A stretch of DNA of 64,000 nt from an uncultured virus (IMG/VR IMGVR_UViG_3300033074_000747) (IMGVR_UViG_3300033074_000747); one strand, 5' to 3'. Positions 28,493 through 55,124 are shown, counted from the first letter of the stretch. The notes: generated from the letters alone by a model not told the origin. Made by a program: numbers and translations.

Positions 28493-28999
28493 TCAGGCCA
28501 GTGGATTCTCCATCTTGGCTTGTCTGGCCCTGCCCCGCAGCCGGGCGAGCGCCCCCTCTACGTCGGCCTCCATCTGCCTCCAGGTCAGACCTCTCTCCCT
28601 CGCCATCACCGCGTTGGGCACGCCGAGCAGGTATCTCCTCTCCAGGATCTCAGCGTCATGCGGATCGAGCAGGCCGAGCAGCTGGGAGCATGCAGCGTGG
28701 TAGTGCGGGTCCGGATCGTCTCTGGATCCTGGCTCGCCCGCGATCGGCTGCGACCGAGGAGCCCGGTTCACGCTCCGGGCATACTGGCTCAGAGCCCCTC
28801 GTATTCGCCAGACCAGGTGGGTGCTGAGGGAGATGTGGTCAGGCTTGGGCATGTTCAGTGCCCGCCACAGGGCCACCAAGCCCACCGCCTCCAGGTCGTC
28901 CAGGTAGTTGACCCATCGGTGGTCGTGGGCGTAACGACCCACCACCTTCCTCACCAGACCCCGATGAGCCAGTATGAGCCTGTCCTCGTCGGTGAGCAT
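28493..28999 (-). CDS. Sigma70-family sigma factor (regions 2 and 4)
   Basis: GLVRKVVGRY...DDLEAVGLVALWRA...WRIRGAL; LDPHDAEILERRY plus HTH. Confidence 0.7.
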   Translation of the reverse strand: MLTDEDRLILAHRGLVRKVVGRYAHDHRWVNYLDDLEAVGLVALWRALNMPKPDHISLSTHLVWRIRGALSQYARSVNRAPRSQPIAGEPGSRDDPDPHYHAACSQLLGLLDPHDAEILERRYLLGVPNAVMARERGLTWRQMEADVEGALARLRGRARQAKMENPLA

Positions 29000-32259: not shown

Positions 32260-32466
32260 TTACTTCACTGGGGTATCCCTCGCCCTATCAACCTCAGCTC
32301 TTACCCGATCAGTGCTCAGCTTTATGAGTTCGGTCATCTGCTTCTCGGTCACAAGACCGTGCGCTACCAGCACAGACTGGATGGCCACCAACGACCCAAG
32401 CATGTTGATCGTAATATCCCGAGTATCGTCGGCCAGCATACTAATAGCAGTTCTATCGAACATCAT
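32260..32466 (-). CDS. Hypothetical protein
   Basis: Coupled to the dcd stop. Confidence 0.4.
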   Translation of the reverse strand: MMFDRTAISMLADDTRDITINMLGSLVAIQSVLVAHGLVTEKQMTELIKLSTDRVRAEVDRARDTPVK

Positions 32467-33059
32467 TTCACCCCCTCGTAGAAGCGACTGGCTGTGGGAC
32501 CGGTCTGGTCTTGATAGCGGCCGTCGTAAGGTTCAATTTTCCCCTCTACCGTCTCGAAGGACACCTGACATATCTTCATCCCAGGGTAGATCCGCACCGG
32601 CTGGACTACGTCAATCTCCAACGTCCATTGGCCTCGGAATCCCACGTCACCCTTACCAGCTGTGGCGTGGACCCGGATGCCCAGTCGCCCTACGCTGCTC
32701 CGGCCGTCGATGACTGGGACATGGTAGGGCGTGTCGGTATACTCAATCGTCGACCCCAGGTAGATGATCCCAGGGTAAAGAACAATTCCGTCGCTTGGAA
32801 TAGTAATTGCATAGGTTGGGTTGTCTGACTCTGGGTCCAGTGGTCGTACGAGTCTTTCGGTCAATCCATCGAATGAATTGAGCTTTTTCTCGAACGACAC
32901 ATAGGTCAGCAGATTGCTACTCAGCCGGAGATCTACGCTGTTCGGCCCCATCTGGCCGCCCTCCTCGGTAGGCCGCCAGTCGATGGTCTCGTTCGGCTCC
33001 ATCCGAATGCGGCCAGCGGCCAGTTCCTCGGTGATCTTACTTCGGGTCAGTATCGCCAT
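32463..33059 (-). CDS. dcd: dCTP deaminase
   Basis: PNSVDLRL, GRSSVGRLG, DVGFRGQWTLEI, ICQVSF and YDGRYQDQ. Confidence 0.9.
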   Translation of the reverse strand: MAILTRSKITEELAAGRIRMEPNETIDWRPTEEGGQMGPNSVDLRLSSNLLTYVSFEKKLNSFDGLTERLVRPLDPESDNPTYAITIPSDGIVLYPGIIYLGSTIEYTDTPYHVPVIDGRSSVGRLGIRVHATAGKGDVGFRGQWTLEIDVVQPVRIYPGMKICQVSFETVEGKIEPYDGRYQDQTGPTASRFYEGVK

Positions 33060-34869
33060 TGGGTCTCCGATTGCGCAGCGGGCCGAATGGGTCCGCTACT
33101 GGTCGCTTCTTGGTAGGGGGTGATACCAGGGGCTTTCGCTCCGGTCGCGGAATCAGTTGTGCCGTGGTTCCTCGATCCATCAGCGCTCCCTCGATGCGGG
33201 GGATGGCGTTATAGTCCAGGTAGTCCTTGCTCAGATCGATACCCACGCAGTGCCGCCCCAGGTCGATGCAGACCTCCACCGTGGTTCCCGATCCGAGGAA
33301 GGGATCGAGGACCACGCAGGGCCGAACGGGATGCTCATCCAGGGGTAGGTCGCTGACGTACTCTACGACTGTAGTATCTGATTCTTCATAGCCGAGGGGA
33401 GCACGCAGCGTACTCCCTTCCCGACTATTAACTGTCTCAGCTTTTTTCTCGTGAGTTCCCAGCCCAGTAATAGCAACGAGCTTGGTTGTTTTGATTTTCT
33501 CCAGGCGGCCGTTACACTCGCACCCAGGTCGCCACCCCAGCGTCGTTGAGTCTACTAAAAACCTCTTCAGCTTGGTTTCGTTATCATGGAGTCCTGTACC
33601 AATGTACTTGGATTCTAGCCCTGGCCTCGTAGCATATCGGTGTTCCTCCGTCACCCTCACCCACGGGGTCCCGCAGTCGGCACAGCATCCGTGCTCGCTG
33701 GTCCCCGCCTTGATCATCGGCTCGATCAGCTTCGGCGGGTAGGTGGCGAAGTGAGCGCCAGGGTATCCTTGCGATGAGACGCGCCAAACGTCGCTGCGTT
33801 CGCCGATTGACTCCAGGTAATCCTCCAGCATCGCCGGGTCGCGCTCGCCTAGCCAGTCCAGCAGGGCGCGGTGGTCGTCTACGGACCAGACGGAGCGCTT
33901 GTTGGCACCAGAACTGGGGATAACAGGTTTCCCACCACGCTCACTAAACCCATCATTCCTTTTGTGGATACCTGTAGGCGATAGGTTGCCACCGTTTGTT
34001 TCCGGGTTCCACGTCCTTATGTAACTTTCCTTCACCGCCTCCGCATCGTAGTAGTACCCCTGCCGCTTGGCGAACAGGAACACGTACTCATGGGCCTTCG
34101 TGCAGCGGTTCTTGGCGCTCTCGGGCATCGGCGAAGGCTTCGCCCAGATGATGTCCTGGCGTAGAATCCAGCCGTCCGCCTGGAGTGCCAGCGCTACGCG
34201 CCAGGGGATGCCAACGAGGTTGCCGGAGGGTAGACCAGATTTAGCACCAGTAGACCTATCATACGCATCTTTAAGAGCGTTATGCTTTGGACTTGGTTTT
34301 ATTACATCATTAAGCCCTATGGTATTTCCGCCACCGCCGTATGAGTCCCCCAAGTTCAGCCACAGCGTGCCGTCGTCCCGCAGCACCCGCCGCACCTCGC
34401 GGAACACGGCCACCATGTTGCAGACGAAGCACCGGCCGCACTGGGCCTGACCCTTCGTATCGCAGTCGGGCGATGGCTCTGACCCCAGCTGCATGTCGAT
34501 ACGGCGAGCGCCGCACTTGCCGCACTGACCGTTCTTCCACGGTTCCCGCTCGTGGTTTTGGTTCGTAGCCCGACCAGACAAGGTGCTTGTCGGGTCTTTC
34601 GGTAGGTTGGGTTTTATTCTCAGGTGATCGCACCCAGGGTCCCCGCCCTCCCACGTCCCGGTGCCGTAGTCGCGGAGGCCCCAATAGGGCGGAGAGGTGA
34701 CGCACATGTGGATTGATTCGGCGGGTAGGCGTGATAGAACGTCGATCACGTGACCCTGGTACAGCCGAACGGTCGAGCTGTCCTTGGTCTGCCAGTAGGG
34801 GTCGAGTTGGGTGATACGTCGTAAGGGCTTGGGTGGCAAGGGTTTATACCTCCAATGTAGCTGGTTCAA
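33037..34869 (-). CDS. N4/N6 DNA methyltransferase (beta class) with Cys-rich insertions
   Basis: TSPPYWGLRDY (motif IV) precedes VLDPFLGSGTT (motif I); also IIWAKP..MPES and HFATYP. Confidence 0.9.
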   Translation of the reverse strand: MNQLHWRYKPLPPKPLRRITQLDPYWQTKDSSTVRLYQGHVIDVLSRLPAESIHMCVTSPPYWGLRDYGTGTWEGGDPGCDHLRIKPNLPKDPTSTLSGRATNQNHEREPWKNGQCGKCGARRIDMQLGSEPSPDCDTKGQAQCGRCFVCNMVAVFREVRRVLRDDGTLWLNLGDSYGGGGNTIGLNDVIKPSPKHNALKDAYDRSTGAKSGLPSGNLVGIPWRVALALQADGWILRQDIIWAKPSPMPESAKNRCTKAHEYVFLFAKRQGYYYDAEAVKESYIRTWNPETNGGNLSPTGIHKRNDGFSERGGKPVIPSSGANKRSVWSVDDHRALLDWLGERDPAMLEDYLESIGERSDVWRVSSQGYPGAHFATYPPKLIEPMIKAGTSEHGCCADCGTPWVRVTEEHRYATRPGLESKYIGTGLHDNETKLKRFLVDSTTLGWRPGCECNGRLEKIKTTKLVAITGLGTHEKKAETVNSREGSTLRAPLGYEESDTTVVEYVSDLPLDEHPVRPCVVLDPFLGSGTTVEVCIDLGRHCVGIDLSKDYLDYNAIPRIEGALMDRGTTAQLIPRPERKPLVSPPTKKRPVADPFGPLRNRRPNGDTDPK

Positions 34870-34870
34870 G

Positions 34871-35458
34871 TTACATGCTGGCCGTCATCTCGCCGCCGCA
34901 CCCGCAAGTCGGCAGCCCGGACTCCTCGATCCACTTGAAGCTGATCGTCACCTTGCACCCGCACTCGACGCACTCCAGTGACGTGGTGGATGGTGGCTTC
35001 ACCGTCAGCTTGCCGACCGGGAGCAGGGCGGCGTGAGGGTAGGGACCGAGCTTGCTGATCATTCCCTCCAGCAGGCCGTTCAGGTAGTCGCCGGGCATCA
35101 CACTCTTCGGCTTGCCCTTCGTCAGTCCCACGTCGCGGCAGACGATCAGGAACATCCCCTTGTGCTGGGCGGCGATCCCGGCGGCCACGTGGGCGGTCTC
35201 GTGGCATAGCGTGCCCGCCACGTCGAGGGGCTGGTCCAGGGTCGGGCTGATGAAAATCTCGTGGTGACCGCCCTTGGACGACTCCAGGGCGTGGCACTCC
35301 CCGACCACCCGGCTCCGGCTCCCCAGGCCGCCCTTGCAGGGCCAGCCGCAGGTCACCCGGTAGGGCTTCAGGGCGAACTTCTTGAACAGAGGTTGGACCA
35401 TCTGCCCAAGCTCGGTCAGCCAGGCCTCTCGGTTCTTGTCGGTTTTGGGATTGACCAT
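34871..35458 (-). CDS. SprT-like zinc metalloprotease with a C-terminal Zn ribbon
   Basis: TLCHETAH...HKGMF; CVECG...CGCG. Confidence 0.7.
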   Translation of the reverse strand: MVNPKTDKNREAWLTELGQMVQPLFKKFALKPYRVTCGWPCKGGLGSRSRVVGECHALESSKGGHHEIFISPTLDQPLDVAGTLCHETAHVAAGIAAQHKGMFLIVCRDVGLTKGKPKSVMPGDYLNGLLEGMISKLGPYPHAALLPVGKLTVKPPSTTSLECVECGCKVTISFKWIEESGLPTCGCGGEMTASM

Positions 35459-35829
35459 TAGACTTCCAGCCTGTTATAAATCAACTTATCTCTGAATTCC
35501 TCAGCTAGCCACTTGATGTCAGAATTGGATAACTTAAACCACTCTGACGTCTTACCACGGTTACACACCATTTTAGTACGAAATTTCTTGTGTAGAATTG
35601 TTTCTGTATGATGGGCATCATCTAGGGTGGGAAACTTGATTACCATCACCTCATCCACAAACGCGCTAAACCTGGGTACATTGGCGATAACGGCATATTG
35701 CTGTCGGGCGTAAGCCCTGCGATTTCTCAGTTTCCATGTATACCCTATCTTATAAATCATTGGACCAGGAGTGTCCCCTATAGGGGCCATAAGATACACA
35801 AGTCCAGCCACCTTAGTATCGTTGCTCAT
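35458..35829 (-). CDS. GIY-YIG / T5orf172-like nuclease
   Basis: VYLM...YKIGYT...ETILHKKF...SEWFKL; AT-rich relative to its neighbours. Confidence 0.7.
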   Translation of the reverse strand: MSNDTKVAGLVYLMAPIGDTPGPMIYKIGYTWKLRNRRAYARQQYAVIANVPRFSAFVDEVMVIKFPTLDDAHHTETILHKKFRTKMVCNRGKTSEWFKLSNSDIKWLAEEFRDKLIYNRLEV

Positions 35830-38160: not shown

Positions 38161-38368
38161 CGTTACCTCCAAGGTCTGTTGATCGGATTCCCTCATATTT
38201 GCCCAGCTCAGACAACTCCTCTTTGGTATATGGAGCGAGAGGGGCGACCTCGACAATCTGAAATTGCTTGCCGCACCAACCGCATAGGATATCACGGGTT
38301 CCTAGCCCGAATAAACCCCATACCTTGTTGACTTGCTGGCAGTGAGGGCACGTCTGATGTTGATCCAT
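38144..38368 (-). CDS. Small Zn-ribbon protein
   Basis: CPHC...CGWC. Confidence 0.5.
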   Translation of the reverse strand: MDQHQTCPHCQQVNKVWGLFGLGTRDILCGWCGKQFQIVEVAPLAPYTKEELSELGKYEGIRSTDLGGNDANAS

Positions 38369-38844
38369 TACTCCTCCGATACGTCAAGAGGATGTGAGTT
38401 GATGGGGACTTGCCGGGACTGTTGTCGTAGCCTCTCATCCATAAACTGATCCAACGAGCGACGAAGCGACTCTGCCTCAGCCTGTCGGTCACGACCATTC
38501 TCGACCGCCCTCTCTTCGCTGTACTTGTCGGGATACCTTACCCGCAGCTTCTGAATATTAGCCTCCATCGCCATCTCCAGCGTGATCCCCGCCGCGTCGC
38601 AGAGCTGGCTGAGCCGCCATAGACAATCACCCACCTCCTCCAGCAGGTTAGGCACATCCAACTCACGGCCGTATTCGATATGACGCATCACGGCCGTGCA
38701 GACCTCGCCCGCGTCCGCTGCCAGGCCCCTCGCCGCGTTATCCAGTCGCATTGCCTGCGGCCCCAGTAGCGTGAGACGAGCCAGGATGGGTTCCTGATTC
38801 GCTTCCGTTCGCCTCGCCAGTTGTTGGTATTCGTTGACGTTCAC
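38368..38844 (-). CDS. MazG-like nucleotide pyrophosphohydrolase
   Basis: NEYQQLA...GEV...EEVGDCLW...NIQKLRVRYP. Confidence 0.8.
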   Translation of the reverse strand: MNVNEYQQLARRTEANQEPILARLTLLGPQAMRLDNAARGLAADAGEVCTAVMRHIEYGRELDVPNLLEEVGDCLWRLSQLCDAAGITLEMAMEANIQKLRVRYPDKYSEERAVENGRDRQAEAESLRRSLDQFMDERLRQQSRQVPINSHPLDVSEE

Positions 38845-39079
38845 CAGACTTCTCCTTCTCTTGTTTAGCCTTCTCCAACTCGATCAACTTGCCCAGGAAG
38901 TGATACGCCTTCTCCAGGTCTTGTATCCCGTTCTTGTCCTGATATCGCTCTACATACTTGGTGATGCAGCCGATAAAGTAGCCAGGGCCGAACAACCTCC
39001 ATTGACGGTCCCAATGTTGCTCTCCCTCGATCTTCCGGTAGTGGTTGCCCCCCACTTGCACGTCGTTAAATGAAGTCAT
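38738..39079 (-). CDS. DUF3310 protein (putative nucleotide kinase)
   Basis: QVGGNHY...GCITKYVERY..KNGIQDLEKA. Confidence 0.75.
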   Translation of the reverse strand: MTSFNDVQVGGNHYRKIEGEQHWDRQWRLFGPGYFIGCITKYVERYQDKNGIQDLEKAYHFLGKLIELEKAKQEKEKSGERQRIPTTGEANGSESGTHPGSSHATGAAGNATG

Positions 39080-40330
39080 CTATTCTACCCTGCCTTTCTC
39101 GGCCGACTGAGCCTTTCGCTTTTCGATCCGTCGCTGTAACCAAGCCACGCAGGCGATCCGCCAGTCGTCGGCCCCGATCACCTCAGCCATCTGCATCGCC
39201 CCGTCCAGGTTCCCATTCTTGTACGAATGCCAGGCCAGACACATTGGCTGCGCGGTGTTCGCCAGGAACGGCTCTGAATATCCCATCATCGAGGACGATC
39301 CCCGGTGGCGCTCGACGAACATGCCGACCTCCTCGTCAAAGGCCGCCGGGTCCATCACCAGGTCTCGGAGCCGGAGCATGCTGCCCCACAATTTGACCTG
39401 CTCGGAGAACGGAACCCTGCTGAGATCGGCGTCCGTGTAGAAGTCGGGCATCGGGTCCGCAAGCCACTCCTCCGGCTTCCAGTTGTTCGTGTAGACGTGA
39501 GCGTTGGACGACACCTGGTGGTACTCGCCGACGTCAAGGTCGAGCCGTGCCGCGAGATACTCCTGGAGGATAGAGAAGTGAACCGCGTTGGCCCCGAGCG
39601 TTCCCCAGATCAGGTCGTTGCTCCGGTTGAACACCGTCATGTTGAGGTATCGCGGTTGTTCATGGGGATACCCTTTACAAACGCTGCACACGGCCTGATC
39701 TCCTTGCACCCCCTCGTAAACTACTCCCCCTTTCCCACCGCACTCAGGGCACGTTCCCGTTTCCACCTCGAACACGGCGGAGAGATTGCAGCAGACGTCC
39801 TTGGACCCTTCAGAATCTGGGTTGATGATCTTCCCGATCTTCAACAGGTCATCCTCCACGTTCCACATCGAGAGAACGGCGCGGCGGGAGTGCGGGTCGG
39901 CCTTGAGGTGGTTAACGATGACGTTGAGCTGATCTGTAGATTGCCATTCTCGCATCTCTCCGATCGCCGTGTTGAACGTAGTAAGTTGACCACCGGCGTG
40001 CCTCCACCGATACCCGTAAGCTCCGTTGAACGTCTGCCCGTCGTCGCTGTAGCTGCTGATTCGGGAGTTGTAGTAGGCCAGCGGTGCCACGTCGTTCCGG
40101 CCCGCCAACATCCAAAGGGCCTCGTACAGGTGGAAGAACGGATTAGCGTCGCGAGCCGCGTTGAAGAGCACGCGCTCGCGCGGGTGAGTGTAGGTGATCG
40201 TGAACGGCCGAGGTATCCGCAGGACTTCTCCATTGCGGCTGGCTGATGTCTCGGTGGAGATCTTCCCGGTGTGAATTCCCTCGACAATCTCCCGGAAGGC
40301 GGTGTTGACATTCCGTGTGATCAAGTGCAT
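39080..40330 (-). CDS. Thymidylate-synthase-family enzyme, probably dUMP hydroxymethyltransferase
   Basis: RDANPFFHLYEALW, GAYGYRWR, SRRAVLSMW, KDVCCN, NRSNDLIWG..GAN and NAHVY. Confidence 0.8.
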   Translation of the reverse strand: MHLITRNVNTAFREIVEGIHTGKISTETSASRNGEVLRIPRPFTITYTHPRERVLFNAARDANPFFHLYEALWMLAGRNDVAPLAYYNSRISSYSDDGQTFNGAYGYRWRHAGGQLTTFNTAIGEMREWQSTDQLNVIVNHLKADPHSRRAVLSMWNVEDDLLKIGKIINPDSEGSKDVCCNLSAVFEVETGTCPECGGKGGVVYEGVQGDQAVCSVCKGYPHEQPRYLNMTVFNRSNDLIWGTLGANAVHFSILQEYLAARLDLDVGEYHQVSSNAHVYTNNWKPEEWLADPMPDFYTDADLSRVPFSEQVKLWGSMLRLRDLVMDPAAFDEEVGMFVERHRGSSSMMGYSEPFLANTAQPMCLAWHSYKNGNLDGAMQMAEVIGADDWRIACVAWLQRRIEKRKAQSAEKGRVE

Positions 40331-40971
40331 GGCTGGGTTCTCCGGATTAGATAGGGGTTGGTGCTGTCGTTTCGTTCAAGTAGGTCGTTGAGCGATTGGG
40401 TGACGCAGCCTATTGGATCAGCCCGGTGCTCGTGGAGCTGATTGTGGATGCGCGGGAACACGATGGCGTGACCCCCGGCCTCCCGGAACCGTTGGCAGTT
40501 GATGTCACTATCGTCGATCAGGATTGACTCCGGATTGGCGAACAGGTGCTTGTGAGGCGTGGGAATCAATCGGTCGAACCGGTCACCAAATCGCCGCTTA
40601 CCCCATTTTACCTTGCCCGAATAGCCAGAGGCGCACCAGCCTGGTGAGGTAAGGATGTACCATTCGAGGCCGCGATCCTTCGCCAGGTCGAACAGATTGG
40701 GAGCCCACGGGAGATCGGGTAGGCCAGCCCAAAATTCCTCATCGCCGTTGATCCGGCTCCAGAAGTGGTTATCGGTCAGGCCCTCCTCCGGGTTGATCCA
40801 ATCGGGTAGCATACCCCTCGATATAAGGTAGTCGCTCAACGGTTTAACGCAGCTCCATACCCCCGGTTGCCAGTGGGGTTCGATCAAGCCAGGGGAGCTA
40901 ACCCCCCATAAACGACAGGCACCACCGACGAAATCGACCAAAACGTCGTCCAGGTCCAAAAATAATTTCAT
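40321..40971 (-). CDS. HAD-family 5'(3')-deoxyribonucleotidase
   Basis: LDLDDVLVDF, ILTSP and LIDD. Confidence 0.8.
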   Translation of the reverse strand: MKLFLDLDDVLVDFVGGACRLWGVSSPGLIEPHWQPGVWSCVKPLSDYLISRGMLPDWINPEEGLTDNHFWSRINGDEEFWAGLPDLPWAPNLFDLAKDRGLEWYILTSPGWCASGYSGKVKWGKRRFGDRFDRLIPTPHKHLFANPESILIDDSDINCQRFREAGGHAIVFPRIHNQLHEHRADPIGCVTQSLNDLLERNDSTNPYLIRRTQPCT

Positions 40972-41156
40972 GTCTAAACCCTTGATATCCATAAAGTTAT
41001 GGCTGGATCCAAAAATTTTTCGATAAAATTGTTGATTTGGTGGCCCATATCGGGTCCGGCTTGCGTATAATATAGTAGGCAGGCAAAACAAGGGACTAAC
41101 AAAGTAGCCCACCCAATCAGGGCTCTCCCAAACAAGCGCCAGCCAGGAGCACTACC

Positions 41157-41564
41157 ATGACCGAGAACAACACCAACACGACCGTGACTGACAACGCCGA
41201 AGAGACCAAGGTTGTCAAAACCCCCAAGGCCAAAAAGGCAGCCCCCAAGGCCAAGTCAGTCAAAACCCCCAAGGTCACAACTCCCAAGGCATCCAAGCCA
41301 GCTGCCAAGGTTGCAACCCCCAAGGCAGCCAAGGCCAATGGCCGCCTCCGCTATGATGACGCTCGTGCCAAGGTCCTGTCGGTCCTGGCCAGCGGCCCAG
41401 CCACCAAAATCTCTCTGTTCCGGATGGGCTTCTACCAGGACTGTACCAAGCTCTTCCGCGACCTCGAGTCCGACGGGCTCATCAAGGCCCGCAAGCCGGA
41501 AGAGGGCGAGCGGGTAGTCTTGTGGGAGCTCACCGCCAAGGGCCGCAAGGCAGCTGGTAAGTAA
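41157..41564 (+). CDS. Histone-H1-like Lys/Ala/Pro-rich protein with a C-terminal winged helix
   Basis: AGGAG RBS, repeated (V)xTPK.AxK, C-terminal LESDGLI...WELTAKG; TATAAT at 41066. Confidence 0.7.
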   Translation: MTENNTNTTVTDNAEETKVVKTPKAKKAAPKAKSVKTPKVTTPKASKPAAKVATPKAAKANGRLRYDDARAKVLSVLASGPATKISLFRMGFYQDCTKLFRDLESDGLIKARKPEEGERVVLWELTAKGRKAAGK

Positions 41565-41584
41565 CCTACCCTAACACCAATCCC

Positions 41585-41618
41585 AACCCCAGCAGTCATT
41601 CTGCTGGGGTTTCTTTTT
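41585..41618 (+). terminator. Intrinsic terminator
   Basis: AACCCCAGCAG-tcatt-CTGCTGGGGTT hairpin followed by TCTTTTT. Confidence 0.75.
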
Positions 41619-42669
41619 GATCAATTTTTTGCACTCTCAGAGTCCCCAGGTCGTAAAGTGGTGGCAAACAAGGGGTATTACCCCCTATTTCCCAACCACG
41701 CAGCACAGGGACCGTGAGAGACTCTCCCGCAATAGCCGCATTAATGGCCTGGGTGGTGGTCCGGTCTGGTGCTGGCATGGTTTTCTTGCCATACTTGTCT
41801 GGCAACAACCCCACGCGCGGCGACAGGGCATCACACCACTGGCAAGGTACGAACTCACGGCTGCCCGCATACAGCACTCTGCGGGCAGCTTCAAATCCCG
41901 GGGCGTGCCACAACCCATCCAGGGTTTCATAGTCGAGTAGGTTGCCAATTTTATAGATACCACGAAAGTCATTGCAGCATAAGGCCACATTGCCATCCCA
42001 CCGAATAGCCAGTTCTCTGAATGGCTTGGCGCATCGCTTGTGAAGCGCCGGGTTCACCTCATGTGGCTTGCCACCACCTCCACAATGAGTATTCACCCTG
42101 TCATAGGGCTTGGTGAGGTGGGAGACGTCTGACTTGACAATCACCCCCGGTGGCTTTCGGTTCCCCTGTGACCAGAATTTCACCTGCTCATCAGAACCAT
42201 CATATCGGTAGATTGGTACATCACCTGAGTAGCCTGCCAGTGCCTTTTGCACAAAGTCGCATCCGTCATACTCATCAAGGCAGATCCAGTCAACCCCAGA
42301 CCTGACCAGCCGGTCTATAAGATCTGGCTTCTTCGAGAATCCTGTACCATTACTCACCACCGAGAGCGATCTTAAGCCGACCCTCGCCAAGGCCGCTACC
42401 ATATCCACAATCTGAGGATGCATGGTAGGTTCACCGTGCATCGCCAATTCAATACGTGGGTTCCAACGATGGTTCTTGATAGCGTGTGCCAGGCGAACGC
42501 ACAGACCATCCATCGTTTCACAGGTCATATATTTGTACCCACCCCGTGTCTCTCTGATCCCCTGAACGCCACAGAACTGGCAATTGAGTGAACATCCTTC
42601 AACCAGTTCGATCTGTATGGCATTAGGAGGATCCTGAGGCGTGATCGATAGTTTTGGGACCGGCGGCAT
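41596..42669 (-). CDS. Radical SAM protein with a SPASM/Twitch domain
   Basis: CSLNCQFC, HGEPTMHP and CAKPF...CCND...CQWC. Confidence 0.85.
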   Translation of the reverse strand: MPPVPKLSITPQDPPNAIQIELVEGCSLNCQFCGVQGIRETRGGYKYMTCETMDGLCVRLAHAIKNHRWNPRIELAMHGEPTMHPQIVDMVAALARVGLRSLSVVSNGTGFSKKPDLIDRLVRSGVDWICLDEYDGCDFVQKALAGYSGDVPIYRYDGSDEQVKFWSQGNRKPPGVIVKSDVSHLTKPYDRVNTHCGGGGKPHEVNPALHKRCAKPFRELAIRWDGNVALCCNDFRGIYKIGNLLDYETLDGLWHAPGFEAARRVLYAGSREFVPCQWCDALSPRVGLLPDKYGKKTMPAPDRTTTQAINAAIAGESLTVPVLRGWEIGGNTPCLPPLYDLGTLRVQKIDQKETPAE

Positions 42670-42681
42670 TGGAACTCCTCA

Positions 42682-43722
42682 CTATTGGTTTTGATTAAAC
42701 GTATTGATGTACTGCTCAGCAATTTTCCGAGCATCATGATTCACCATGATGTTATAGGATTTACGGACCATACTTCGTATTTCAGATTCACTTCGTTCGG
42801 TCTCGAGGCAGTCGATAAGCTCATCTGAACTGCCTACCGCGAGACAGTTTACATCAGGCTTCCAAATCCCATCTGGTGTAACCCAGGCCCGATTCAGAAT
42901 CAAGCAACATCCCGCGTCCATTGCTTCGAGAAGAGTATACTGGGTGCCGCCACCATCACCCTTGATTTCTGTCAAGTCTACAAGATAGGTCGCCTGTGAT
43001 GCGATCTCCTGTGCGGTCCCCATTTCCTTACCGAAGGTCATCTTCAGGTGGTCAGGTAATTCTGAATCCTGTTTGAATTCCGGATATTTACGTGACCCGT
43101 CTGCTCGTGGTCTTATAAAAGCATTGAAGGTGAAGAATCGATCATCGTATCCTCGAAGCCAGATTTGTGATTTGGCTTTTAACCTACGATTCGCTTCGAC
43201 TATCCACTTCGTTCTCTTGATCGCGCCAAGCCTTGATAATGTGACTGCCAGTTTGAGCCGAGGGTAGGTGAATGTGAATCCATCCAAATGCCGTACGAAC
43301 GGATGTGGAATGAACGTGGCATTGGGACATATTCTAGTGTTGTTCTTTCTGATAATGATGATCCGGCGACTGTCAGTCCACTCTGTCGATGAGAAGTTTC
43401 CCAGGTCATTGGGATCATGAATCGTGATGAATGCACCTTGACCTAACAAGTACCGGGTCGGTCCTTCATACTCTTTACCAATGCAGGCAGCAACCAGCGT
43501 ATGTCCAGAGAGCTGGGCGATGTATTCTACCGGCGCATTACGTTGCTCACATCCATATCCAAAGTCTTTGATGTTACCGAGCTTTTTTCCCACCCGGTAA
43601 ATCATTGGATTGTATCCTGCCAGTTTCAGTCCATGATAAAGATGTGCCGTGTAGGTGATAGTTCCCCCATACTTATTCGGATTCAGTAAAACCAGGTTCA
43701 CGTCGATTGACTGTTCACTCAT
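42682..43722 (-). CDS. GT-B-fold glycosyltransferase
   Basis: YGGTITYTAHL, SRLGAIK and GGTQYTLLEAMDAG. Confidence 0.7.
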   Translation of the reverse strand: MSEQSIDVNLVLLNPNKYGGTITYTAHLYHGLKLAGYNPMIYRVGKKLGNIKDFGYGCEQRNAPVEYIAQLSGHTLVAACIGKEYEGPTRYLLGQGAFITIHDPNDLGNFSSTEWTDSRRIIIIRKNNTRICPNATFIPHPFVRHLDGFTFTYPRLKLAVTLSRLGAIKRTKWIVEANRRLKAKSQIWLRGYDDRFFTFNAFIRPRADGSRKYPEFKQDSELPDHLKMTFGKEMGTAQEIASQATYLVDLTEIKGDGGGTQYTLLEAMDAGCCLILNRAWVTPDGIWKPDVNCLAVGSSDELIDCLETERSESEIRSMVRKSYNIMVNHDARKIAEQYINTFNQNQ

Positions 43723-44552
43723 ACTGTTGCCCCACTTTTCTGTGATGCCGACCATGCCTTCCACCAGTACACGATCACATCGGCACGCTCTTTGAAGTCT
43801 CTCCATGCCGGACTCGTATCCTTTGATACCTTGGTGACCACCTTGACGAAGTCTGGAAATGCAGCCGCCAGTCCTTCAGCTCCTCGCCGTTGCACTTCTG
43901 CGGTTCTATAAATGCTACATCCACCAGAGCTCCCACTCCCCTCCTGGTTCCACACATAGTCATGAATGACGAGATTCGGATGACCAGTGCTGAGTAGACT
44001 AAGGGTGAAATGGAAGTCCTCCATGACTGGGAGACTATCCCAACGAACACCCGTTGCCAGTACCTTTTCACGGTCGAAGAAGTGGAAGTCGTTCACTCGT
44101 TCGCAGTCAACAAACAGGTGGCCCCACTTGATCCAACCCTTGGCACGCGGGCCGCTATTATCCTTCCGATTGTTCCCCTGCCGAGCACCTACACCACCGT
44201 GAATATACCCCTCGCTGACACACTTCTCAATACACTCGATCATTGGATCAAGGTTTTCACACTTCTCCAGTTTTGTCACGGCTGGATCTGGTCGGTAGCT
44301 AAATCGCATATCATCGCTGGCTACAATGACAATATCGGCACTGCTGTTCTCCATAATCCATTGTCGAGTTGGCCCTATCCCATTCAAAGGGCATCCCATC
44401 ACTTTGAGCCAGTATTTCTTATGTAAAGCCACCTCGTCCGCAGGGCACACCAGGATCGGCTCATGCGATGAGTATTCAAGAAACTCCCGCAAGGTGACCT
44501 GTCTGTTGACACCGATCCGACCACGAGTTGGGATGTAGATGCGAGTACTCAT
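43719..44552 (-). CDS. GT-A glycosyltransferase of the TET/JBP-associated (TAGT/GREB1-like) type
   Basis: IYIPTRGR, IGPTRQWI, SDDM, MEDFHFTL and GGCSIYRT. Confidence 0.75.
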   Translation of the reverse strand: MSTRIYIPTRGRIGVNRQVTLREFLEYSSHEPILVCPADEVALHKKYWLKVMGCPLNGIGPTRQWIMENSSADIVIVASDDMRFSYRPDPAVTKLEKCENLDPMIECIEKCVSEGYIHGGVGARQGNNRKDNSGPRAKGWIKWGHLFVDCERVNDFHFFDREKVLATGVRWDSLPVMEDFHFTLSLLSTGHPNLVIHDYVWNQEGSGSSGGCSIYRTAEVQRRGAEGLAAAFPDFVKVVTKVSKDTSPAWRDFKERADVIVYWWKAWSASQKSGATV

Positions 44553-45469
44553 GTGCCATTATACCTCCGCTTTGATCGACCCTCGCCAAGTCGCAACCGT
44601 TCATATTTATCGAACTCACAAAGACTATGCTCAACCTCACGCATTTCAAATCTCGGCATATCCTTCAACCTTGATCTAAGGACTTCGAGAAGAATTCGAG
44701 TCTGTACACCCCAGGTATCACTCGAAATAGTTGCCTCGAGAGGAGTTCCCATGAGCCTGTTCATTCCCCGCTTGGCACCAGGGCCGATATTACACCATGA
44801 ATCGACATCACTAGCATTTTCAAGCAAGCTCGTATACCGTAGGTCACACACGATCTCATAGGACATGAACCCACCAAGGCCCCTAAATTTTCGAAGGGCC
44901 GCCCACAGTGCCTGAAGTCTACAATCTTCTCGGCAGACCTTCACCAGGTCTTTCCTGGCCTCCCAAATTTTGGTAATGCAACCACACACTGATGGGATTT
45001 TACTCCCTCTGGGGCCGTTACCAGCCTTGACCATGAACGCGCCCGTAAACACGGGGTTATTCCCGTTATCCCACAGGTGGTTTAGCCTTGCAACAGCCTC
45101 CTCCTCATCCCACTTGAGGAGCAGGTTTGATTTCCCCCAGGATCGATCCCATGACGTGACCTCATCACTCCTTAAGTGACCCATCAATATGAGCCCGGTG
45201 GTTGGCAAATTGAACCATCGAAATGCCACCGTAGCAAACAGCACGCGCGGATCGTCCTTCAGTGGATCACGTACATTCTCGCGAAACCAGACTGACACCT
45301 TGTCATTTTCACGATAAGGGTTCGTAAAGAAATATCGCTGGAGGATTTCATCATCGGTCCAGGGTTTATCGCGGCCCGCCTGCCTCCGCTTGTAGATCTC
45401 GTGTCGTTCCTTCACCCAGTATAGAAACCTCTCTGTCGGATTCAGCTGTCCTACCTGGTCTGGGTTCAT
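44549..45469 (-). CDS. aGPT-Pplase1-family (5-hmdU DNA kinase helical domain) base-modification protein
   Basis: FLYWVKERHEI...PWTDDEIL..YFFTNPYREND, GGFMSYEIVCD, GPGAKRG and EHSLCEFDKY. Confidence 0.8.
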   Translation of the reverse strand: MNPDQVGQLNPTERFLYWVKERHEIYKRRQAGRDKPWTDDEILQRYFFTNPYRENDKVSVWFRENVRDPLKDDPRVLFATVAFRWFNLPTTGLILMGHLRSDEVTSWDRSWGKSNLLLKWDEEEAVARLNHLWDNGNNPVFTGAFMVKAGNGPRGSKIPSVCGCITKIWEARKDLVKVCREDCRLQALWAALRKFRGLGGFMSYEIVCDLRYTSLLENASDVDSWCNIGPGAKRGMNRLMGTPLEATISSDTWGVQTRILLEVLRSRLKDMPRFEMREVEHSLCEFDKYERLRLGEGRSKRRYNGT

Positions 45470-47949
45470 ATCGATTCTCCTTCACCCCAGTTGTGAGTAT
45501 GGTACTCGCAGCTCACCGGTGTCGGCAAGCCCAGATCATCGCCGCCCAACGACATTACGGATTGGATCTTGCGAATGCGCCACAGGTTGCTTCTCCGCAT
45601 CAGCTTCACCCCGTCCGGCCGCGAGGGGTCTAGGTCTTCTCTCGGATGAATACGACTCTTGGGAAAGTCGAACACCAGCTCGTCATGAACCTGCATCACG
45701 ATCCGGCCGTCGAACCCCGACGAGGCCCGCCAGCTGTCAAGTAGATTCTGACATCGGATCATCGCCTTCATCATCCACCACATGGCGGTTCCCTGGGAGA
45801 AGTAGTTAAGAGGGATGGTGGGCTTGACGTCTCCTCGATCTGACCGTGAGCACATCAGCGGATAACCACGAGCCGGGTCTACGGTCTTGTCCGGCATCGT
45901 CTCGATGTATCCGTGCTTGTTGGCGAATCGGATGCACTTCTGGTTGAGCTGCTCCAGTCGGTTGAAGCGCTCTCGGAGTCGGGCGTGGCTGCCATTGCGG
46001 TGGAATGCCCTGTCTGCCGTGCCGCCTCCCTCCGCGCGGTCCACTGCCCCATAGAGCACCGCGAACCCCCCATTCTTACACCACTGATACCAGGTGTCCG
46101 CGTATTTCTTCTTGACGTAGGGACCGACCAGGCTCAGGTCAATCTTCTTGCCCTTGTGCTTGCCTTCCCATTCCCATACCCCCTCCTTCAACGACTTGTC
46201 CCAGATGTCTGGATAGACGGTGTGGAAATTCAGCAGGTGGTTGCTGCCGTAGTAGGGTGGTTCGTCCGGCCGCTCGAACAGGCCGATCATCTCGACCTCC
46301 TCGGCGGCATAGGCGGGGATGCGCAGCTCGATGTTTCGAGCGTCACAGCTCCACCACTCACGGTCCGGAGCGGGGCCGAAGCAGTATCGCAGTGACCGGA
46401 GCTGAAGGCCCGACCCCTTGCACTCTTTGCATCCCTCGCCGCGACACGTTGGGCACTCGATCTCTTGCTTGGAGATGTTCTGTTCATTTGGATTGTTGCT
46501 GCTCCACCGCAACGTGTCCGTCCCCGTCGGATTCAGGTTGGGGTGGAGGCAGTACCACAACTGGCGACCCGTATCGTCAAAGATCCCCAGTGGTATCCAG
46601 AATTTGCGATACCCGGCCATGTACGCCAGGGCGGTGTCCTTCTTCCTCTTACCCGTCAGGGACCGCACGAAGTCCAACCCAGGCCCCTCCGGCAGTGAGC
46701 TGAGGTAATGTTCCATCACGGCCTTGTTGAGCGTCGGGGCCGACGTCTTCCCCTTGGGGTTGCGCATCTGAGGTAGCTTCAGCCCCTCGAACATAAACTG
46801 GCGGAGGCTGTTGTTCGGGCTGGCCCCCTTCGGTAGTTCCAGCTCATAGCCCATGTCGGCGGCCGTCTGGACGCAGCACTCCCCAGCCTCGATGCTCTCC
46901 TGCCGGTAGCGGGCCTCTAACTCATCCAGGTTGGCCGCGCTCACCGTCACCCCCGTCTCCTCCATCCGGTAGGCCACGGGGATCACCTTCATCCGTTCGC
47001 GGAAGATCGCCTCCAGGTTCCTCTGCTTGATGTGACGCAGCATTACCGGCCACAAGCTCACGGTCACCGCGCTGTCAGCGTTGGCATAGTCGCGTAGCAC
47101 AGTCCACCAGGGGTGATCGCCCTCCATGATCTCCGGAGGTCGGTATTGCCAGCCCGGTAGTTCAGACACACGGTCGATCTTCAAGAGCCTACCGAAGTCA
47201 ACCCCGCGAGGTTGCTTCTGCGGTAGGTTCATCCAGGCCAATCTCGCGTCGCTCGTCTCCCACAGGTGCTTCACCAGGGCACGGGGCAGCCACGTGTCGT
47301 ACTTCCACGGTTCGGCCCCAGCACTGGGGATGTCGGGCAGGTCATCGGAGGCGATCCGCCACTGGGCCAGCGGATTGTCGTCCTCGAACAGCGCTCCCTC
47401 GGTTCCCTTCGCGGCCGCCCTCTTTACCTTGAGTTTGGCCTGCTGGACCATGCGCCGGGCCTCCTTAGTCGCCTCCTTCAGCTTCTCCTCGTGCGGCTCG
47501 ATGTCGGTCCCAAGGTAGTGCAAGGCCATGTCGGTCAGGTTGTGGGGCTGGTTCGACGCTAGGAGGTGACCGGCGATGAGCGTGTCCTTCACCGCCTTCC
47601 AGCACTCGTAGACATCGAAGCCCTGATCCCACAGGCCGATGAACCGCAGTGCCGTGAAGTCAAACTTGGCATTCTGGAGTATCAGCCCGCCGCTGTCCTG
47701 CTCGTAGTCGCCGATCGGCCCTGATGGTCCGCTGGCGAATAGCAACTCGGCGATCTCGCGCACGTCCTCGTCCGGTATCTGCGGTTGTCGGGTCAGTGGG
47801 TCGACGTCCCATTCAAAGTAGTACTGCTCCCCTTCCCCCGTACACATGGTGACGAAGAACGGCCGAGCGCCGTGATAGAAGTCTACACCAGTAGTCTCAG
47901 TGTCGAGCGATATCACTTGATCCTCCCGTTCATCAGGCATGGTTGACAC
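45466..47949 (-). CDS. polA: Family A DNA polymerase
   Basis: DTET exonuclease I motif, TDTLRWSSNNPNEQNI, motif A DARNIELR, motif B KNGGFAVLYG and motif C QVHDEL. Confidence 0.9.
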   Translation of the reverse strand: MSTMPDEREDQVISLDTETTGVDFYHGARPFFVTMCTGEGEQYYFEWDVDPLTRQPQIPDEDVREIAELLFASGPSGPIGDYEQDSGGLILQNAKFDFTALRFIGLWDQGFDVYECWKAVKDTLIAGHLLASNQPHNLTDMALHYLGTDIEPHEEKLKEATKEARRMVQQAKLKVKRAAAKGTEGALFEDDNPLAQWRIASDDLPDIPSAGAEPWKYDTWLPRALVKHLWETSDARLAWMNLPQKQPRGVDFGRLLKIDRVSELPGWQYRPPEIMEGDHPWWTVLRDYANADSAVTVSLWPVMLRHIKQRNLEAIFRERMKVIPVAYRMEETGVTVSAANLDELEARYRQESIEAGECCVQTAADMGYELELPKGASPNNSLRQFMFEGLKLPQMRNPKGKTSAPTLNKAVMEHYLSSLPEGPGLDFVRSLTGKRKKDTALAYMAGYRKFWIPLGIFDDTGRQLWYCLHPNLNPTGTDTLRWSSNNPNEQNISKQEIECPTCRGEGCKECKGSGLQLRSLRYCFGPAPDREWWSCDARNIELRIPAYAAEEVEMIGLFERPDEPPYYGSNHLLNFHTVYPDIWDKSLKEGVWEWEGKHKGKKIDLSLVGPYVKKKYADTWYQWCKNGGFAVLYGAVDRAEGGGTADRAFHRNGSHARLRERFNRLEQLNQKCIRFANKHGYIETMPDKTVDPARGYPLMCSRSDRGDVKPTIPLNYFSQGTAMWWMMKAMIRCQNLLDSWRASSGFDGRIVMQVHDELVFDFPKSRIHPREDLDPSRPDGVKLMRRSNLWRIRKIQSVMSLGGDDLGLPTPVSCEYHTHNWGEGESI

Positions 47950-53873: not shown

Positions 53874-54539
53874 CTATGGAGCCAGCTCCTCCACGGCATT
53901 CGCCAGTCGCACGACGCACTTCTGGATCATCATCCCCTGCTGGACCACGCTGGCGCGGAGGATCGCCGCCGGGTGGGTGATGTTGATCTGCGGGATGTCG
54001 CGATGGAGCTTCACCCCCTTCTTGTATTCTGGATCCAGGTAGTCCCTCGCTAGTGTACCGACGCACACGACCAGCTTGAGCCGGTTCCCTCGATCGCACA
54101 GGGCGATGAAGTCCTGGAGCCGCCCGGAGCAGCACTGGACCTGCTCCTTGGTCGGCTCGCCCGCCTTGCCACCCTGCTCGTGGTCACGGGGAATACAACC
54201 CACCAGGTTGCCGAGGGCGTAGGTCAGGTTCACCCCGGCCAGTCCCTCGGCGATAATCTGGTCGAGCAGCTTGCCCGCTGGACCGACGAACGGGTCACCG
54301 ATCACGTCCTCACTCTCGCCTGGCCCCTCGCCGATGAACGCCACGTCGCAGGGGACAGACCCCCTTCCCAGCACCACGTTCCTCGCACCGGCGCACTCCG
54401 TCGAACCACAGCCCGACCTCCAGCGGTCCACGTGCTCGGCCCAACTCCTGGAGAAGGTAGGTAGGGGTTGGCGTGTCGGAACGGGGCTGAGGGAGGCGGT
54501 CAACTCGGCCCTCAGCGGCTTGGGTCTTGGTTTTGGCAT
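53874..54539 (-). CDS. Uracil-DNA glycosylase family 4-like
   Basis: FIGEGPGESED..GDPFVGPAGKLL, HPAAILR and Fe-S Cys residues. Confidence 0.85.
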   Translation of the reverse strand: MPKPRPKPLRAELTASLSPVPTRQPLPTFSRSWAEHVDRWRSGCGSTECAGARNVVLGRGSVPCDVAFIGEGPGESEDVIGDPFVGPAGKLLDQIIAEGLAGVNLTYALGNLVGCIPRDHEQGGKAGEPTKEQVQCCSGRLQDFIALCDRGNRLKLVVCVGTLARDYLDPEYKKGVKLHRDIPQINITHPAAILRASVVQQGMMIQKCVVRLANAVEELAP

Positions 54540-54576: not shown

Positions 54577-55083
54577 TCAGCATGTTCGAGGTCCTCCGGT
54601 TCTGGGGGTCTGAGTTCGATCGTCCAGTCGATACTCCATCTGGTAGATGTCCGATCCGTCGTCCGTCTGCCATGACAGGGTCTTCGTCCATCGGAACCCG
54701 AGCGAGCGCAGGACCACCTGGCCGCGCACGTCTCGCTCGGTCATCCGGTACACCAGCCGACTGCGGCGGCGGCTGGATATGCTGCCCTTCAGCTGGTCGA
54801 TCATCTGGCGGGCGATCCCACGGCCCTGCATCCCCTCGGCCACGGCCAGGTTCAAGATCAGTATGCATCCTCGGTGCAGCTCGTAGATCATGAACCCGAC
54901 GACCACCCCGCGATACTCGGCCACCTTACCGATGCAGTTGCGCTGACCGAGGCACTCCCTGAACTCCTCCTTGGTCCAGGGCTCCTCGTACCCGTCTCTC
55001 TCGATCTGGAGCACCGCCTCCATATCTGACTGGACCATCCAGCGCATGTGGACCCGCACGAAGTCTTCGACTCTGTCCGCCAT
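54577..55083 (-). CDS. rimI: RimI-like GNAT acetyltransferase
   Basis: VHMRWM...QRNCIGKVAE...VVGFMIYELH...ILNLAV...QGRGIA. Confidence 0.75.
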   Translation of the reverse strand: MADRVEDFVRVHMRWMVQSDMEAVLQIERDGYEEPWTKEEFRECLGQRNCIGKVAEYRGVVVGFMIYELHRGCILILNLAVAEGMQGRGIARQMIDQLKGSISSRRRSRLVYRMTERDVRGQVVLRSLGFRWTKTLSWQTDDGSDIYQMEYRLDDRTQTPRTGGPRTC

Positions 55084-55124
55084 CGGGAATCCTCCCAAGA
55101 GAACGGCCGGGAATTTGATGTCGC

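Follow-up and report, generated by a model that had tools for sequence, protein, structure and literature searches.

A candidate kinase-free thymidine hypermodification cassette pairing glycosyltransferases with a radical SAM enzyme in an uncultured phage

Described hypermodification systems and the window cassette

In the pathways reconstituted from phages M6, ViI, PaMx11, and SH-Ab 15599, 5-hydroxymethyluracil (hmU) in DNA is phosphorylated, after which an amine or amino acid is added. Here we analyze a gene cluster at positions 38368–45469 of a 64,000-nt stretch of DNA (the window) from an uncultured virus (IMGVR_UViG_3300033074_000747). The cluster encodes a thymidylate synthase (TS) homologue, a PF18723 protein, a TAGT-family and a GT-B-fold glycosyltransferase (GT), and a radical S-adenosylmethionine (rSAM) enzyme. 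A first-pass annotation of the window had proposed that its DNA carries a sugar-modified, rSAM-tailored, and possibly undescribed form of hmU. Comparative evidence favors this reading because the TS homologue belongs to a uracil-type lineage, the TAGT protein retains the motifs of its family, the rSAM enzyme is BtrN-like, the genes are linked in 57 of 80 related loci, two fusion proteins join TAGT to rSAM, and other loci pair the module with TET/JBP dioxygenases. We consider it moderately likely that hmU is made before replication and glycosylated independently of a kinase, that the rSAM enzyme then reworks the DNA-bound sugar, and that the PF18723 protein belongs to the same pathway. Hydroxymethylpyrimidine hypermodification is a known kind of system; its kinase-free glycosyl and rSAM variant appears to be new.

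The M6/YuA, PaMx11, ViI, and SH-Ab 15599 clusters share with the window a TS-type hydroxymethylase of the same lineage, with PF18723 (34–41% identity) beside it (PMC8989533, PMC5889632, PMC11472151, PMC13458397). Clusters of the M6/PaMx11 type also resemble it in DUF3310, in a deoxynucleoside monophosphate nucleotidase function, in adjacency to polA, and in modifying hmU post-replicatively, as we predict for the window. Unlike them, the window has neither a P-loop 5-hydroxymethyldeoxyuridine (5-hmdU) DNA kinase (5-HMUDK) nor a PF18724 transferase, and its cluster contains glycosyltransferases instead of tailoring enzymes dependent on pyridoxal phosphate (PLP) or flavin adenine dinucleotide (FAD) or of the acetyltransferase type. 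The rSAM enzymes differ as well, that of M6 being an SPL-like isomerase and that of the window BtrN-like. The first-pass annotation had invoked the aGPT-Pplase route of 5-hmdU phages; the protein found here is of clade 1 (PF18723), and since both the DNA kinase and PF18724, the proven transferase, are lacking, the pathway departs from that route.

A second point of comparison is base J of kinetoplastids, made by JBP and the base J glucosyltransferase (JGT), where, as predicted for the window, a TAGT-type GT-A glycosylates the hydroxymethyl group of hmU in DNA. Among AFDB structures, JGT ranks first as a structural homologue of phage GT-A enzymes (bioRxiv 2023.12.21.572611). In five of the 80 relatives the hydroxymethyl source would, as for base J, be a TET/JBP dioxygenase. 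The window differs in that hmU would be made before replication by the TS homologue, and so would probably replace T genome-wide; it also adds a GT-B, a twitch-domain rSAM enzyme, and PF18723, and it has no J-binding domain. Glycosylation of 5-hydroxymethylcytosine (5hmC) in phages, whether by T-even gp42 with alpha/beta-GT or by a C5 methyltransferase, a TET 5mYOX enzyme, and a GT, likewise proceeds from a hydroxymethylpyrimidine to GT-A or GT-B action (PMC8256090). In contrast to those systems, the window TS homologue is uracil-type (Asn, not Asp), and its conserved partners are PF18723 and the BtrN-like rSAM enzyme. Contigs with GT-A and GT-B genes next to ThyS have already been mined by Pyle et al. 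(bioRxiv 2023.12.21.572611; cited in PMC13229309 as Cell Rep 2024). The terms "radical," rSAM, and SPASM are absent from the main texts of PMC8256090 and PMC13229309, as are "radical SAM," rSAM, and SPASM from the available portion of the Pyle preprint text (bioRxiv 2023.12.21.572611).

Jumbo phages SP-15, YerA41, and Carin-5 resemble the window in having a hexose-bearing T replacement, here predicted, in having GT genes near the DNA polymerase, and in encoding a dCTP deaminase and a TS homologue (PMC12686479, PMC13697223). Unlike anything expected from the window, their bases have a (di)hydroxypentyl linker and a phosphate, and their genomes encode a UDG-fused polymerase family of their own together with genes for nucleoside diphosphate (NDP)-sugars. 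These detected sugar-bearing thymidines have no worked-out pathway. Pelagiphages of the HTVC023P type carry part of the cassette, with TS, aG/PT-PPlase1, a nucleotidase, and a glucosyltransferase near PolA (PMC9599517); the available portion of that paper reads these genes as M6-like hypermodification and mentions neither a radical SAM gene nor a missing kinase or transferase. In the literature searched, supplements aside, we found no description of the cassette itself.

Cassette enzymes and their conservation among relatives

The window is phage DNA encoding a portal, head genes, polA, a primase/helicase, a Sak4-like ATPase, and an exonuclease, with nearly all genes on the minus strand. Searches of its open reading frames (ORFs) against Pfam and PHROGs located every cluster gene named by the first-pass annotation, from MazG to PF18723, on the minus strand and where it had placed them.

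The gene at the root of the predicted pathway encodes a TS-family enzyme of 416 aa (39080–40330, minus strand; Pfam E 2.3e-20; phrog_5131 E 1.7e-97). Identity over the full length is 36% with M6 gp58 (E 6e-69) and 34% with PhiJL001 gp24, and at the DNA level M6-, PaMx11-, and Ab18-like phages supply the best matches with their TS genes. We read it as a putative uracil-type dUMP hydroxymethylase of the M6/PaMx11 lineage, whose product would be hmdUMP. In an alignment of 68 sequences (the window, 64 cassette loci, M6, PaMx11, and PhiJL001), catalytic Cys181, Asn248, and an RSND motif are invariant in all 68. The closest solved relative is the CMP hydroxymethylase MilA (E 1.2e-13), ahead of true TS enzymes; pairwise alignment with MilA places Asn of the window protein at the base-specifying Asn position of TS, where MilA has Asp. 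A dCMP or CMP hydroxymethylase of the T4 gp42 or MilA type was rejected because Asn, not Asp, is kept at this site in 68 of 68 sequences. Nor does the protein score as a canonical ThyA, the NCBIfam TS equivalogs giving 42–61 bits against cut-offs of 108–405 (best, 61 versus 174.55). At about residues 194–218 (~39677–39751) lies a zinc-ribbon-like CxxC...CxxC insert shared by ~3–4 of the 68 homologues.

The TAGT-family GT-A (43719–44552, minus strand; Pfam TAGT E 1.9e-12; phrog_842 E 4.5e-32) scores 48 bits against a Pfam (PF20691) cut-off of 27.5, and the PHROG that it matches is labeled beta-glucosyl-HMC-alpha-glucosyltransferase. Across 31 sequences its DDD (DxD) and MED (ED) motifs are retained, with D80, D81, and D179 invariant and D79, M177, and E178 nearly so. 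Searched against PDB sequences, its profile matched only a GT-A at the DxD region (E 0.41). By analogy with its family, we predict that this enzyme transfers a sugar to the 5-hydroxymethyl group of hmU in DNA.

Overlapping it lies the gene for a 374-aa GT-B-fold glycosyltransferase (42682–43806, minus strand), which probably starts at residue 18 (43755). This protein falls under the Pfam cut-off (Glyco_trans_1_2, E 9.6e-4), and its identity rests on its ESM Atlas model, whose nearest clusters are glycosyltransferases including Glycos_transf_1 (TM 0.69–0.81), together with a conserved GT4-like motif. Among 19 homologues the motifs HDP, HPY, and DGGGTQY..EA.DAG are conserved, the last being the C-terminal nucleotide-sugar motif. 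One Atlas feature match falls in a cluster composed 100% of PF11440 (T4 AGT), with no PF11440 match in Pfam; against PDB sequences the best profile match reached only E 0.39.

The Radical_SAM and SPASM protein encoded at 41596–42669 (minus strand; Pfam E 1.9e-10 and 9.2e-9) is a BtrN-like twitch rSAM enzyme. We recovered at least 826 homologues at E 1e-5, and in an alignment of 41 the CxxxCxxC motif (C26, C30, C33) and C213, C231, C276, and C279 are invariant. Against PDB sequences the family profile matched BtrN at E 9.2e-16, with the next match at 3e-5. The profile alignment spans both domains and pairs the CxxxCxxC motif and four Cys of the BtrN twitch domain, which we take to be the ligands of the BtrN auxiliary [4Fe-4S] cluster. 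An AlphaFold2 (AF2) model with a mean predicted local distance difference test (pLDDT) score of 84.5 retrieved BtrN by Foldseek at E 5.8e-12; in VIA it aligned with BtrN (PDB 4m7t) at Z 22.6 and a root-mean-square deviation (rmsd) of 3.0 over 233 of 246 residues, the next entry having Z 15.3. Further Foldseek neighbors (DesII, BlsE, SpeY, and AbmM) act on sugars. The two enzymes are thus alike in core and twitch domains, aligned Cys, and fold, and unlike in that identity is ~19%, the phage enzyme is ~100 residues longer, and its genomic partners are DNA-modification genes. BtrN is the 2-deoxy-scyllo-inosamine dehydrogenase of butirosin synthesis, oxidizing a secondary alcohol of an aminocyclitol, and BtrN-type enzymes take hydrogen from the carbinol carbon. 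By analogy, the window enzyme may carry out a two-electron oxidation of a secondary alcohol. A tblastn search of 50,697 deposited phage records with the rSAM protein gave no match at E 1e-10. A complex prediction of TAGT with rSAM returned a score of 0.00 and no verdict either way. In one metagenomic homologue (P0134), an intein (Pfam Intein_splicing E 1.3e-12) that contains an HNH endonuclease splits the protein.

When the rSAM alignment was run against IMG/VR, at least 194 contigs proved to encode relatives of this enzyme, and 80 loci were kept for counts of genes within 6 kb of rSAM. The alignment was required, as single-sequence IMG/VR scans with rSAM or GT-B recovered no relative. TAGT is present at 60 of the 80 loci and GT-B at 17, with either or both at 71; a TS homologue occurs at 64, PF18723 at 61, and a GT, PF18723, and TS together at 57. 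Pfam searches of 86 ORFs from 10 loci bore out these gene families. The order polA, PF18723, GT(s), rSAM, TS, primase/helicase recurs in L007, L013, L045/L046, L006, L011, L047, and L050. The slot between PF18723/TAGT and rSAM is empty at some loci; at others it is occupied by an FkbM-type methyltransferase, by a GT-B or two GT-B paralogues, or, at seven loci, by members of a family that in the Atlas has the look of a divergent TAGT. Two cultured phages, PhiJL001 and Brevibacterium phage LuckyBarnes, carry a partial version of the cassette, having TS, TAGT, and PF18723 but lacking rSAM.

Fusion proteins also join TAGT and rSAM. A 579-aa protein of locus L029 has TAGT at its N terminus and rSAM at its C terminus, and a search of 1.84 billion representatives turned up another protein of this build, 588 aa long and 40% identical to the first. 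Both (P0121 and P0125) match Pfam TAGT, Radical_SAM, and SPASM. A TAGT-like extension was not found in P0149 (534 aa), and the N terminus of P0135 is weakly GT-B-like (probability 40%).

At five of the 80 viral loci (L020, L021, L023, L024, and L030) a TET/JBP dioxygenase gene lies near rSAM and there is no TS match, and the same holds for L094, a prophage of Actinomadura rayongensis DSM 102126. L020, L021, L024, L030, and L094 also encode a ParB homologue; L023, where rSAM adjoins TET, has no ParB match. Phage 5mYOX enzymes with a link to ParB are predicted to be T-dioxygenases (PMC13229309). GT-B homologues occur among these loci in L024, where ParB, GT-B, rSAM, and TET stand side by side, and in L094 (NZ_WUTW01000008.1, ~151–168 kb), where rSAM, a C5 DNA methylase, a ParB homologue, and a 670-aa protein joining a GT-B-like N terminus to a Tet_JBP C terminus occur next to the small terminase. 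That GT and rSAM follow both known sources of 5-hydroxymethylpyrimidine, TS and TET/JBP, is in our view the strongest argument that they act on this handle. Because its host is in culture, the L094 prophage makes the TET-linked form of the module accessible.

Around these enzymes the window carries the usual tool-kit of a T-replacing phage, comprising dcd, MazG, a nucleotidase, DUF3310, and a family 4 uracil-DNA glycosylase (UDG). The dCTP deaminase gene, dcd, which the first-pass annotation had put at 32.5 kb, was found at 32463–33059 (minus strand; Pfam DCD E 6.3e-34; phrog_1663 E 5.5e-41), and its product may supply dU nucleotides for hmU synthesis. A MazG-like NTP pyrophosphatase gene (38368–38844, minus strand; Pfam MazG E 1.7e-7; phrog_229 E 2.2e-31), probably starting at the ATG at 38751, would encode a dUTP/dTTP pyrophosphatase. 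The adjacent DUF3310 protein (38738–39079, minus strand; Pfam E 6.1e-7; phrog_236 E 1.3e-13) is 46% identical to M6 gp61 and 35% identical to PhiJL001 gp26; related PHROG families are labeled nucleotide kinase, and it is a candidate hmdUMP kinase. On the far side of the TS gene lies a HAD/NT5C-like 5'-deoxynucleotidase gene (40321–41112, minus strand; phrog_2643 "5'-3' deoxyribonucleotidase" E 5.3e-15), the product of which has a DxDxV motif after an internal Met and probably starts at ~40971. It falls under the Pfam cut-off (NT5C, E 0.025), and relatives in L013 and L045, 39–41% identical to it, pass NT5C; it would remove dTMP. The family A DNA polymerase gene polA (45466–47949, minus strand; Pfam DNA_pol_A E 5.4e-21; phrog_17 E 4e-57) directly abuts the PF18723 end of the cassette.

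Predicted pathway and competing explanations

We infer the substrates, the order of steps, and the final structure in the following scheme. In a first stage, before replication, dcd and MazG would feed dUMP, the TS homologue would convert it to 5-hmdUMP, the HAD nucleotidase and MazG would deplete dT nucleotides, DUF3310 and host kinases would take hmdUMP to the triphosphate, and the adjacent PolA would build hmU DNA. In a second stage, after replication, TAGT would move a sugar from a host NDP-sugar onto the 5-hydroxymethyl group in the manner of the base J glucosyltransferase, GT-B would add or vary a second sugar, and the BtrN-like rSAM enzyme would rework the DNA-bound sugar, most likely by abstracting a carbinol hydrogen and oxidizing the hydroxyl to a ketone. 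The scheme uses no DNA kinase step. As a tentative extension, in which we place less than even confidence, the cassette may represent a widespread, undescribed, kinase-free form of T hypermodification, in which hmU, derived from TS or from TET/JBP with ParB, is glycosylated and rSAM and PF18723 then convert the sugar to a new substituent, which might be a keto, rearranged, or C-linked sugar or involve the sugar as a leaving group.

Several points weigh against this scheme. Both for the window phage and for its rSAM-bearing relatives, the modification is a prediction from gene content, and sequence alone cannot tell a hydroxymethylase from a methylating TS. The cluster contains no gene for NDP-sugar synthesis, and at nine of the 80 rSAM loci neither TAGT nor GT-B was matched within 6 kb. 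The substrate of BtrN is an aminocyclitol and not a DNA-bound sugar, and a BtrN-like enzyme could oxidize the hydroxymethyl group of hmU itself. The scheme leaves the role of PF18723 unexplained, and hhalign of PF18723 against two amino-acid:DNA transferases (AADTs) aligns only the Glu...Cys segment, without significance (probability 0.7%, E 0.08). The Pfam kinase model is weak on the proven-kinase partner, with PaMx11 gp49 at 17 bits, under the cut-off, and ~35 kb of the 99,456-bp contig lies outside the window.

Of the alternatives, the one that survives best, which we nonetheless judge unlikely, has the rSAM enzyme act on the base by oxidizing the 5-hydroxymethyl or glycosyloxymethyl carbon (giving, for example, 5-formyluracil or a bond-forming radical), with PF18723 and the GTs building on the product. 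In favor of it, hmU offers a carbinol carbon of the kind from which BtrN-type enzymes take hydrogen, rSAM tracks TS-type and TET-type hydroxymethylpyrimidine sources alike, and nine of the 80 loci show no GT within 6 kb. Moreover, the PF18723 Cys may match the C6-attacking Cys of PUGT (PMC11472151). Set against this, the presence of a GT within 6 kb at 71 of 80 loci and the two TAGT–rSAM fusions fit consecutive steps on one sugar-bearing substrate. Oxidation of the hydroxyl would deprive the GT of its acceptor, and several of the Foldseek neighbors modify sugars.

It is also conceivable, although improbable in our estimate, that the phage makes an amine or amino-acid modification in the M6/PaMx11 style, with a kinase and transferase that are divergent, host-encoded, or in the ~35 kb outside the window, and with the GTs and rSAM as side decorations. 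PF18723 is a hallmark of such clusters, and a divergent kinase could be missed, since PaMx11 gp49 itself lies under the Pfam threshold. In Pfam, PF18723 corresponds to M6 gp55 and PaMx11 gp50, PF18724 ("ADDT," formerly aGPT-Pplase2) to M6 gp51 and PaMx11 gp46, both proven transferases, and PF18748 to M6 gp54, a proven kinase. Pfam searches of the 58 window ORFs detected no 5-hmdU DNA kinase (PF18748/PF18747) and no PF18724 transferase, the PF18723 protein had no PF18724 match even at E 1, and tblastn of the window with M6 gp54 and gp51 and PaMx11 gp49 and gp46 returned nothing. Walker A motifs in window frames of at least 80 aa numbered three, in the primase/helicase, the Sak4-like ATPase, and one unrelated ORF. 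Nor did the missing genes appear elsewhere: none of the five relatives rated 100% complete by CheckV has PF18748 or PF18724, the complete PhiJL001 genome has no kinase match, and PF18724 matches in these five relatives and PhiJL001 were confined to the PF18723 gene and never exceeded the Pfam cut-off. The positive controls M6 and PaMx11 were both detected, with PF18724 scores of 160 and 97 bits. Among the 86 neighboring ORFs from 10 loci there was no match to PF18748, PF18747, or PF18724 at E 1e-4, and none of the 23 unassigned neighbors has a Walker A motif. Partner enzymes of the PLP, FAD, or SPL-type rSAM kind are likewise absent: used as tblastn queries, M6 gp52 and gp53 gave only chance-level matches.

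The PF18723 protein itself (HMUDK_hel, formerly aGPT-Pplase clade 1; 306 aa; 44549–45469, minus strand; Pfam E 2.4e-46) is 33–45% identical to M6 gp55, PaMx11 gp50, and PhiJL001 gp19. Its AF2 model (pLDDT 90.7) has as its best VIA match PaMx11 gp46/PUGT (8z2n; Z 11.8, rmsd 4.1, 225 residues aligned), followed at Z 10–11 by helix-hairpin-helix (HhH) DNA glycosylases, and at such Z helical proteins can match by arrangement alone. Foldseek gave no match to the model at E 0.001 or better, and the profile produced only a chance match to PDB sequences (E 1). Invariant in 36 sequences are R22, D56, R84, K157, D209, D221, a GPG..RG hairpin, C284, E285, and K288, and a conserved Glu stands four residues ahead of the invariant Cys. 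PUGT uses Glu243 to bind its metal and Cys247 for the attack on C6 (PMC11472151). The PUGT-like fold, the invariant residues, and the Glu/Cys spacing suggest that PF18723, an HhH-fold paralogue of the amino-acid:DNA transferase, is probably an active enzyme that flips bases, depends on its Cys, and would work in the same pathway. M6 gp55 is dispensable for the formation of N-alpha-glycinylthymidine in lysates (PMC8989533). Two tandem PF18723 paralogues precede TAGT in L007 (7483–9215), the relative closest in synteny, and the window has one.

These features of PF18723 invite a further explanation, more doubtful than the preceding ones, in which glycosylation replaces phosphorylation as the activation of hmU: TAGT would make a glycosyloxymethyluracil, and the PF18723 Cys would attack C6, expel the sugar, perhaps after its oxidation by rSAM, and install a nucleophile, leaving the final base sugar-free. 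Its closest structural relative is PUGT (Z 11.8), its Glu-Cys spacing is that of PUGT Glu243/Cys247 (PMC11472151), and the kinase that usually makes the leaving group is missing. This is, however, pure inference with no indicated donor nucleophile; the hhalign match is not significant, and the extra GTs (in many loci, a GT-B or second TAGT-like paralogues) fit a retained glycan better. Least probable of all is that the targets of the GTs and rSAM lie outside DNA, in a protein, in the host envelope, or among small molecules, and that the DNA contains plain hmU at most, or T: the folds of all three enzymes (GT-A, GT-B, and twitch rSAM) are generic, GT-B could not be assigned to a family, and the tie of these enzymes to DNA is drawn from gene content, but the genes lie in a replication and nucleotide module by polA, away from structural genes, they are linked with TS and PF18723 at 57 of 80 loci and with TET/JBP and ParB at others, and 5hmC in DNA is the substrate of the phage GT-A enzymes of this type that have been characterized (bioRxiv 2023.12.21.572611).

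The pathway that we favor, glycosylation of hmU followed by rSAM action on the sugar, would be carried by a compact, kinase-free cassette of three to five genes that is widespread among uncultured phages, occurring on at least 194 IMG/VR contigs, and that pairs a base-J-type glycosyltransferase with an rSAM enzyme of the sugar-oxidizing type. The cassette also contains PF18723, the only conserved component of the known clusters still without an assigned function, and it would provide a setting in which to isolate that activity. If correct, the scheme predicts new DNA nucleosides, with masses to look for. The less certain extension given above would imply one or more DNA bases not yet seen and make this the second radical SAM enzyme family known to act on DNA modification. 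The scheme would further offer enzymes for site-independent labeling of hmU in DNA and bear on how phages escape restriction and glycosylase-based defenses.

Base composition, module exchange, and neighboring genes

The first-pass annotation had described the region from 41.6 to 45.4 kb as AT-richer and suggested that it is a swappable module; the first statement is confirmed and the second supported. Sliding GC content is 0.48–0.52 at 42.0–45.6 kb against ~0.58–0.64 elsewhere, and GC at third codon positions (GC3) is 0.55 for rSAM, 0.49 for GT-B, 0.55 for TAGT, and 0.55 for PF18723, compared with 0.79, 0.78, and 0.84 for the flanking polA, TS, and primase/helicase genes. The window TAGT is 71% identical to that of L013, whereas the rSAM, polA, TS, and PF18723 proteins of that locus are only 39–53% identical to their window counterparts. 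This disparity and the GC3 contrast point to a module that moves, as does the varying GT set between PF18723 and rSAM. The evidence supports the view that the four-gene post-replicative block is a lower-GC, probably recently acquired module exchanged among phages.

Within the gap at 41117–41599, between the nucleotidase and rSAM genes, lies a real-looking gene on the opposite, plus strand (41157–41564; 135 aa by translation), where the sign of the AT skew flips. Minus-strand ORFs at 41117–41338 and 41432–41599 were rejected as genes, being low-complexity mirror frames of this ORF. The N-terminal half of the plus-strand product is Lys/Ala/Pro-rich and histone-H1-like, and its other end is possibly a winged helix; it has no Pfam match at E 0.001, and PadR/SarA-type matches are weak (E 0.003–0.008). 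Opposite-strand ORFs between the rSAM and TS genes also occur in relatives L007, L012, and L045.

The family 4 UDG gene lies farther along the replication module (53874–54539, minus strand; Pfam UDG E 9.1e-15; TIGR00758 E 1.6e-18, under its cut-off), and its product possibly polices dU in hmU DNA. It is adjoined by a GNAT acetyltransferase gene (54577–55167, minus strand). In locus L005 a UDG gene is located within the cassette itself.

On the other side of the cassette, a T5orf172/MUG113-type gene (35458–35829, minus strand), GIY-YIG-like as in homing endonucleases, sits between the primase/helicase gene and a phrog_6361 gene; its GC of 0.43 and GC3 of 0.48 are far below those of its neighbors, and it is probably a mobile insert. 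A 610-aa N6/N4 DNA methyltransferase is encoded at 33037–34869 (minus strand), with a large insert splitting its Pfam match over residues 53–399, and the phage may accordingly modify its DNA in a second way, by methylation. A small protein encoded immediately downstream of the portal gene (28493–28999, minus strand) contains sigma-70 region 2 and may be a phage sigma factor.

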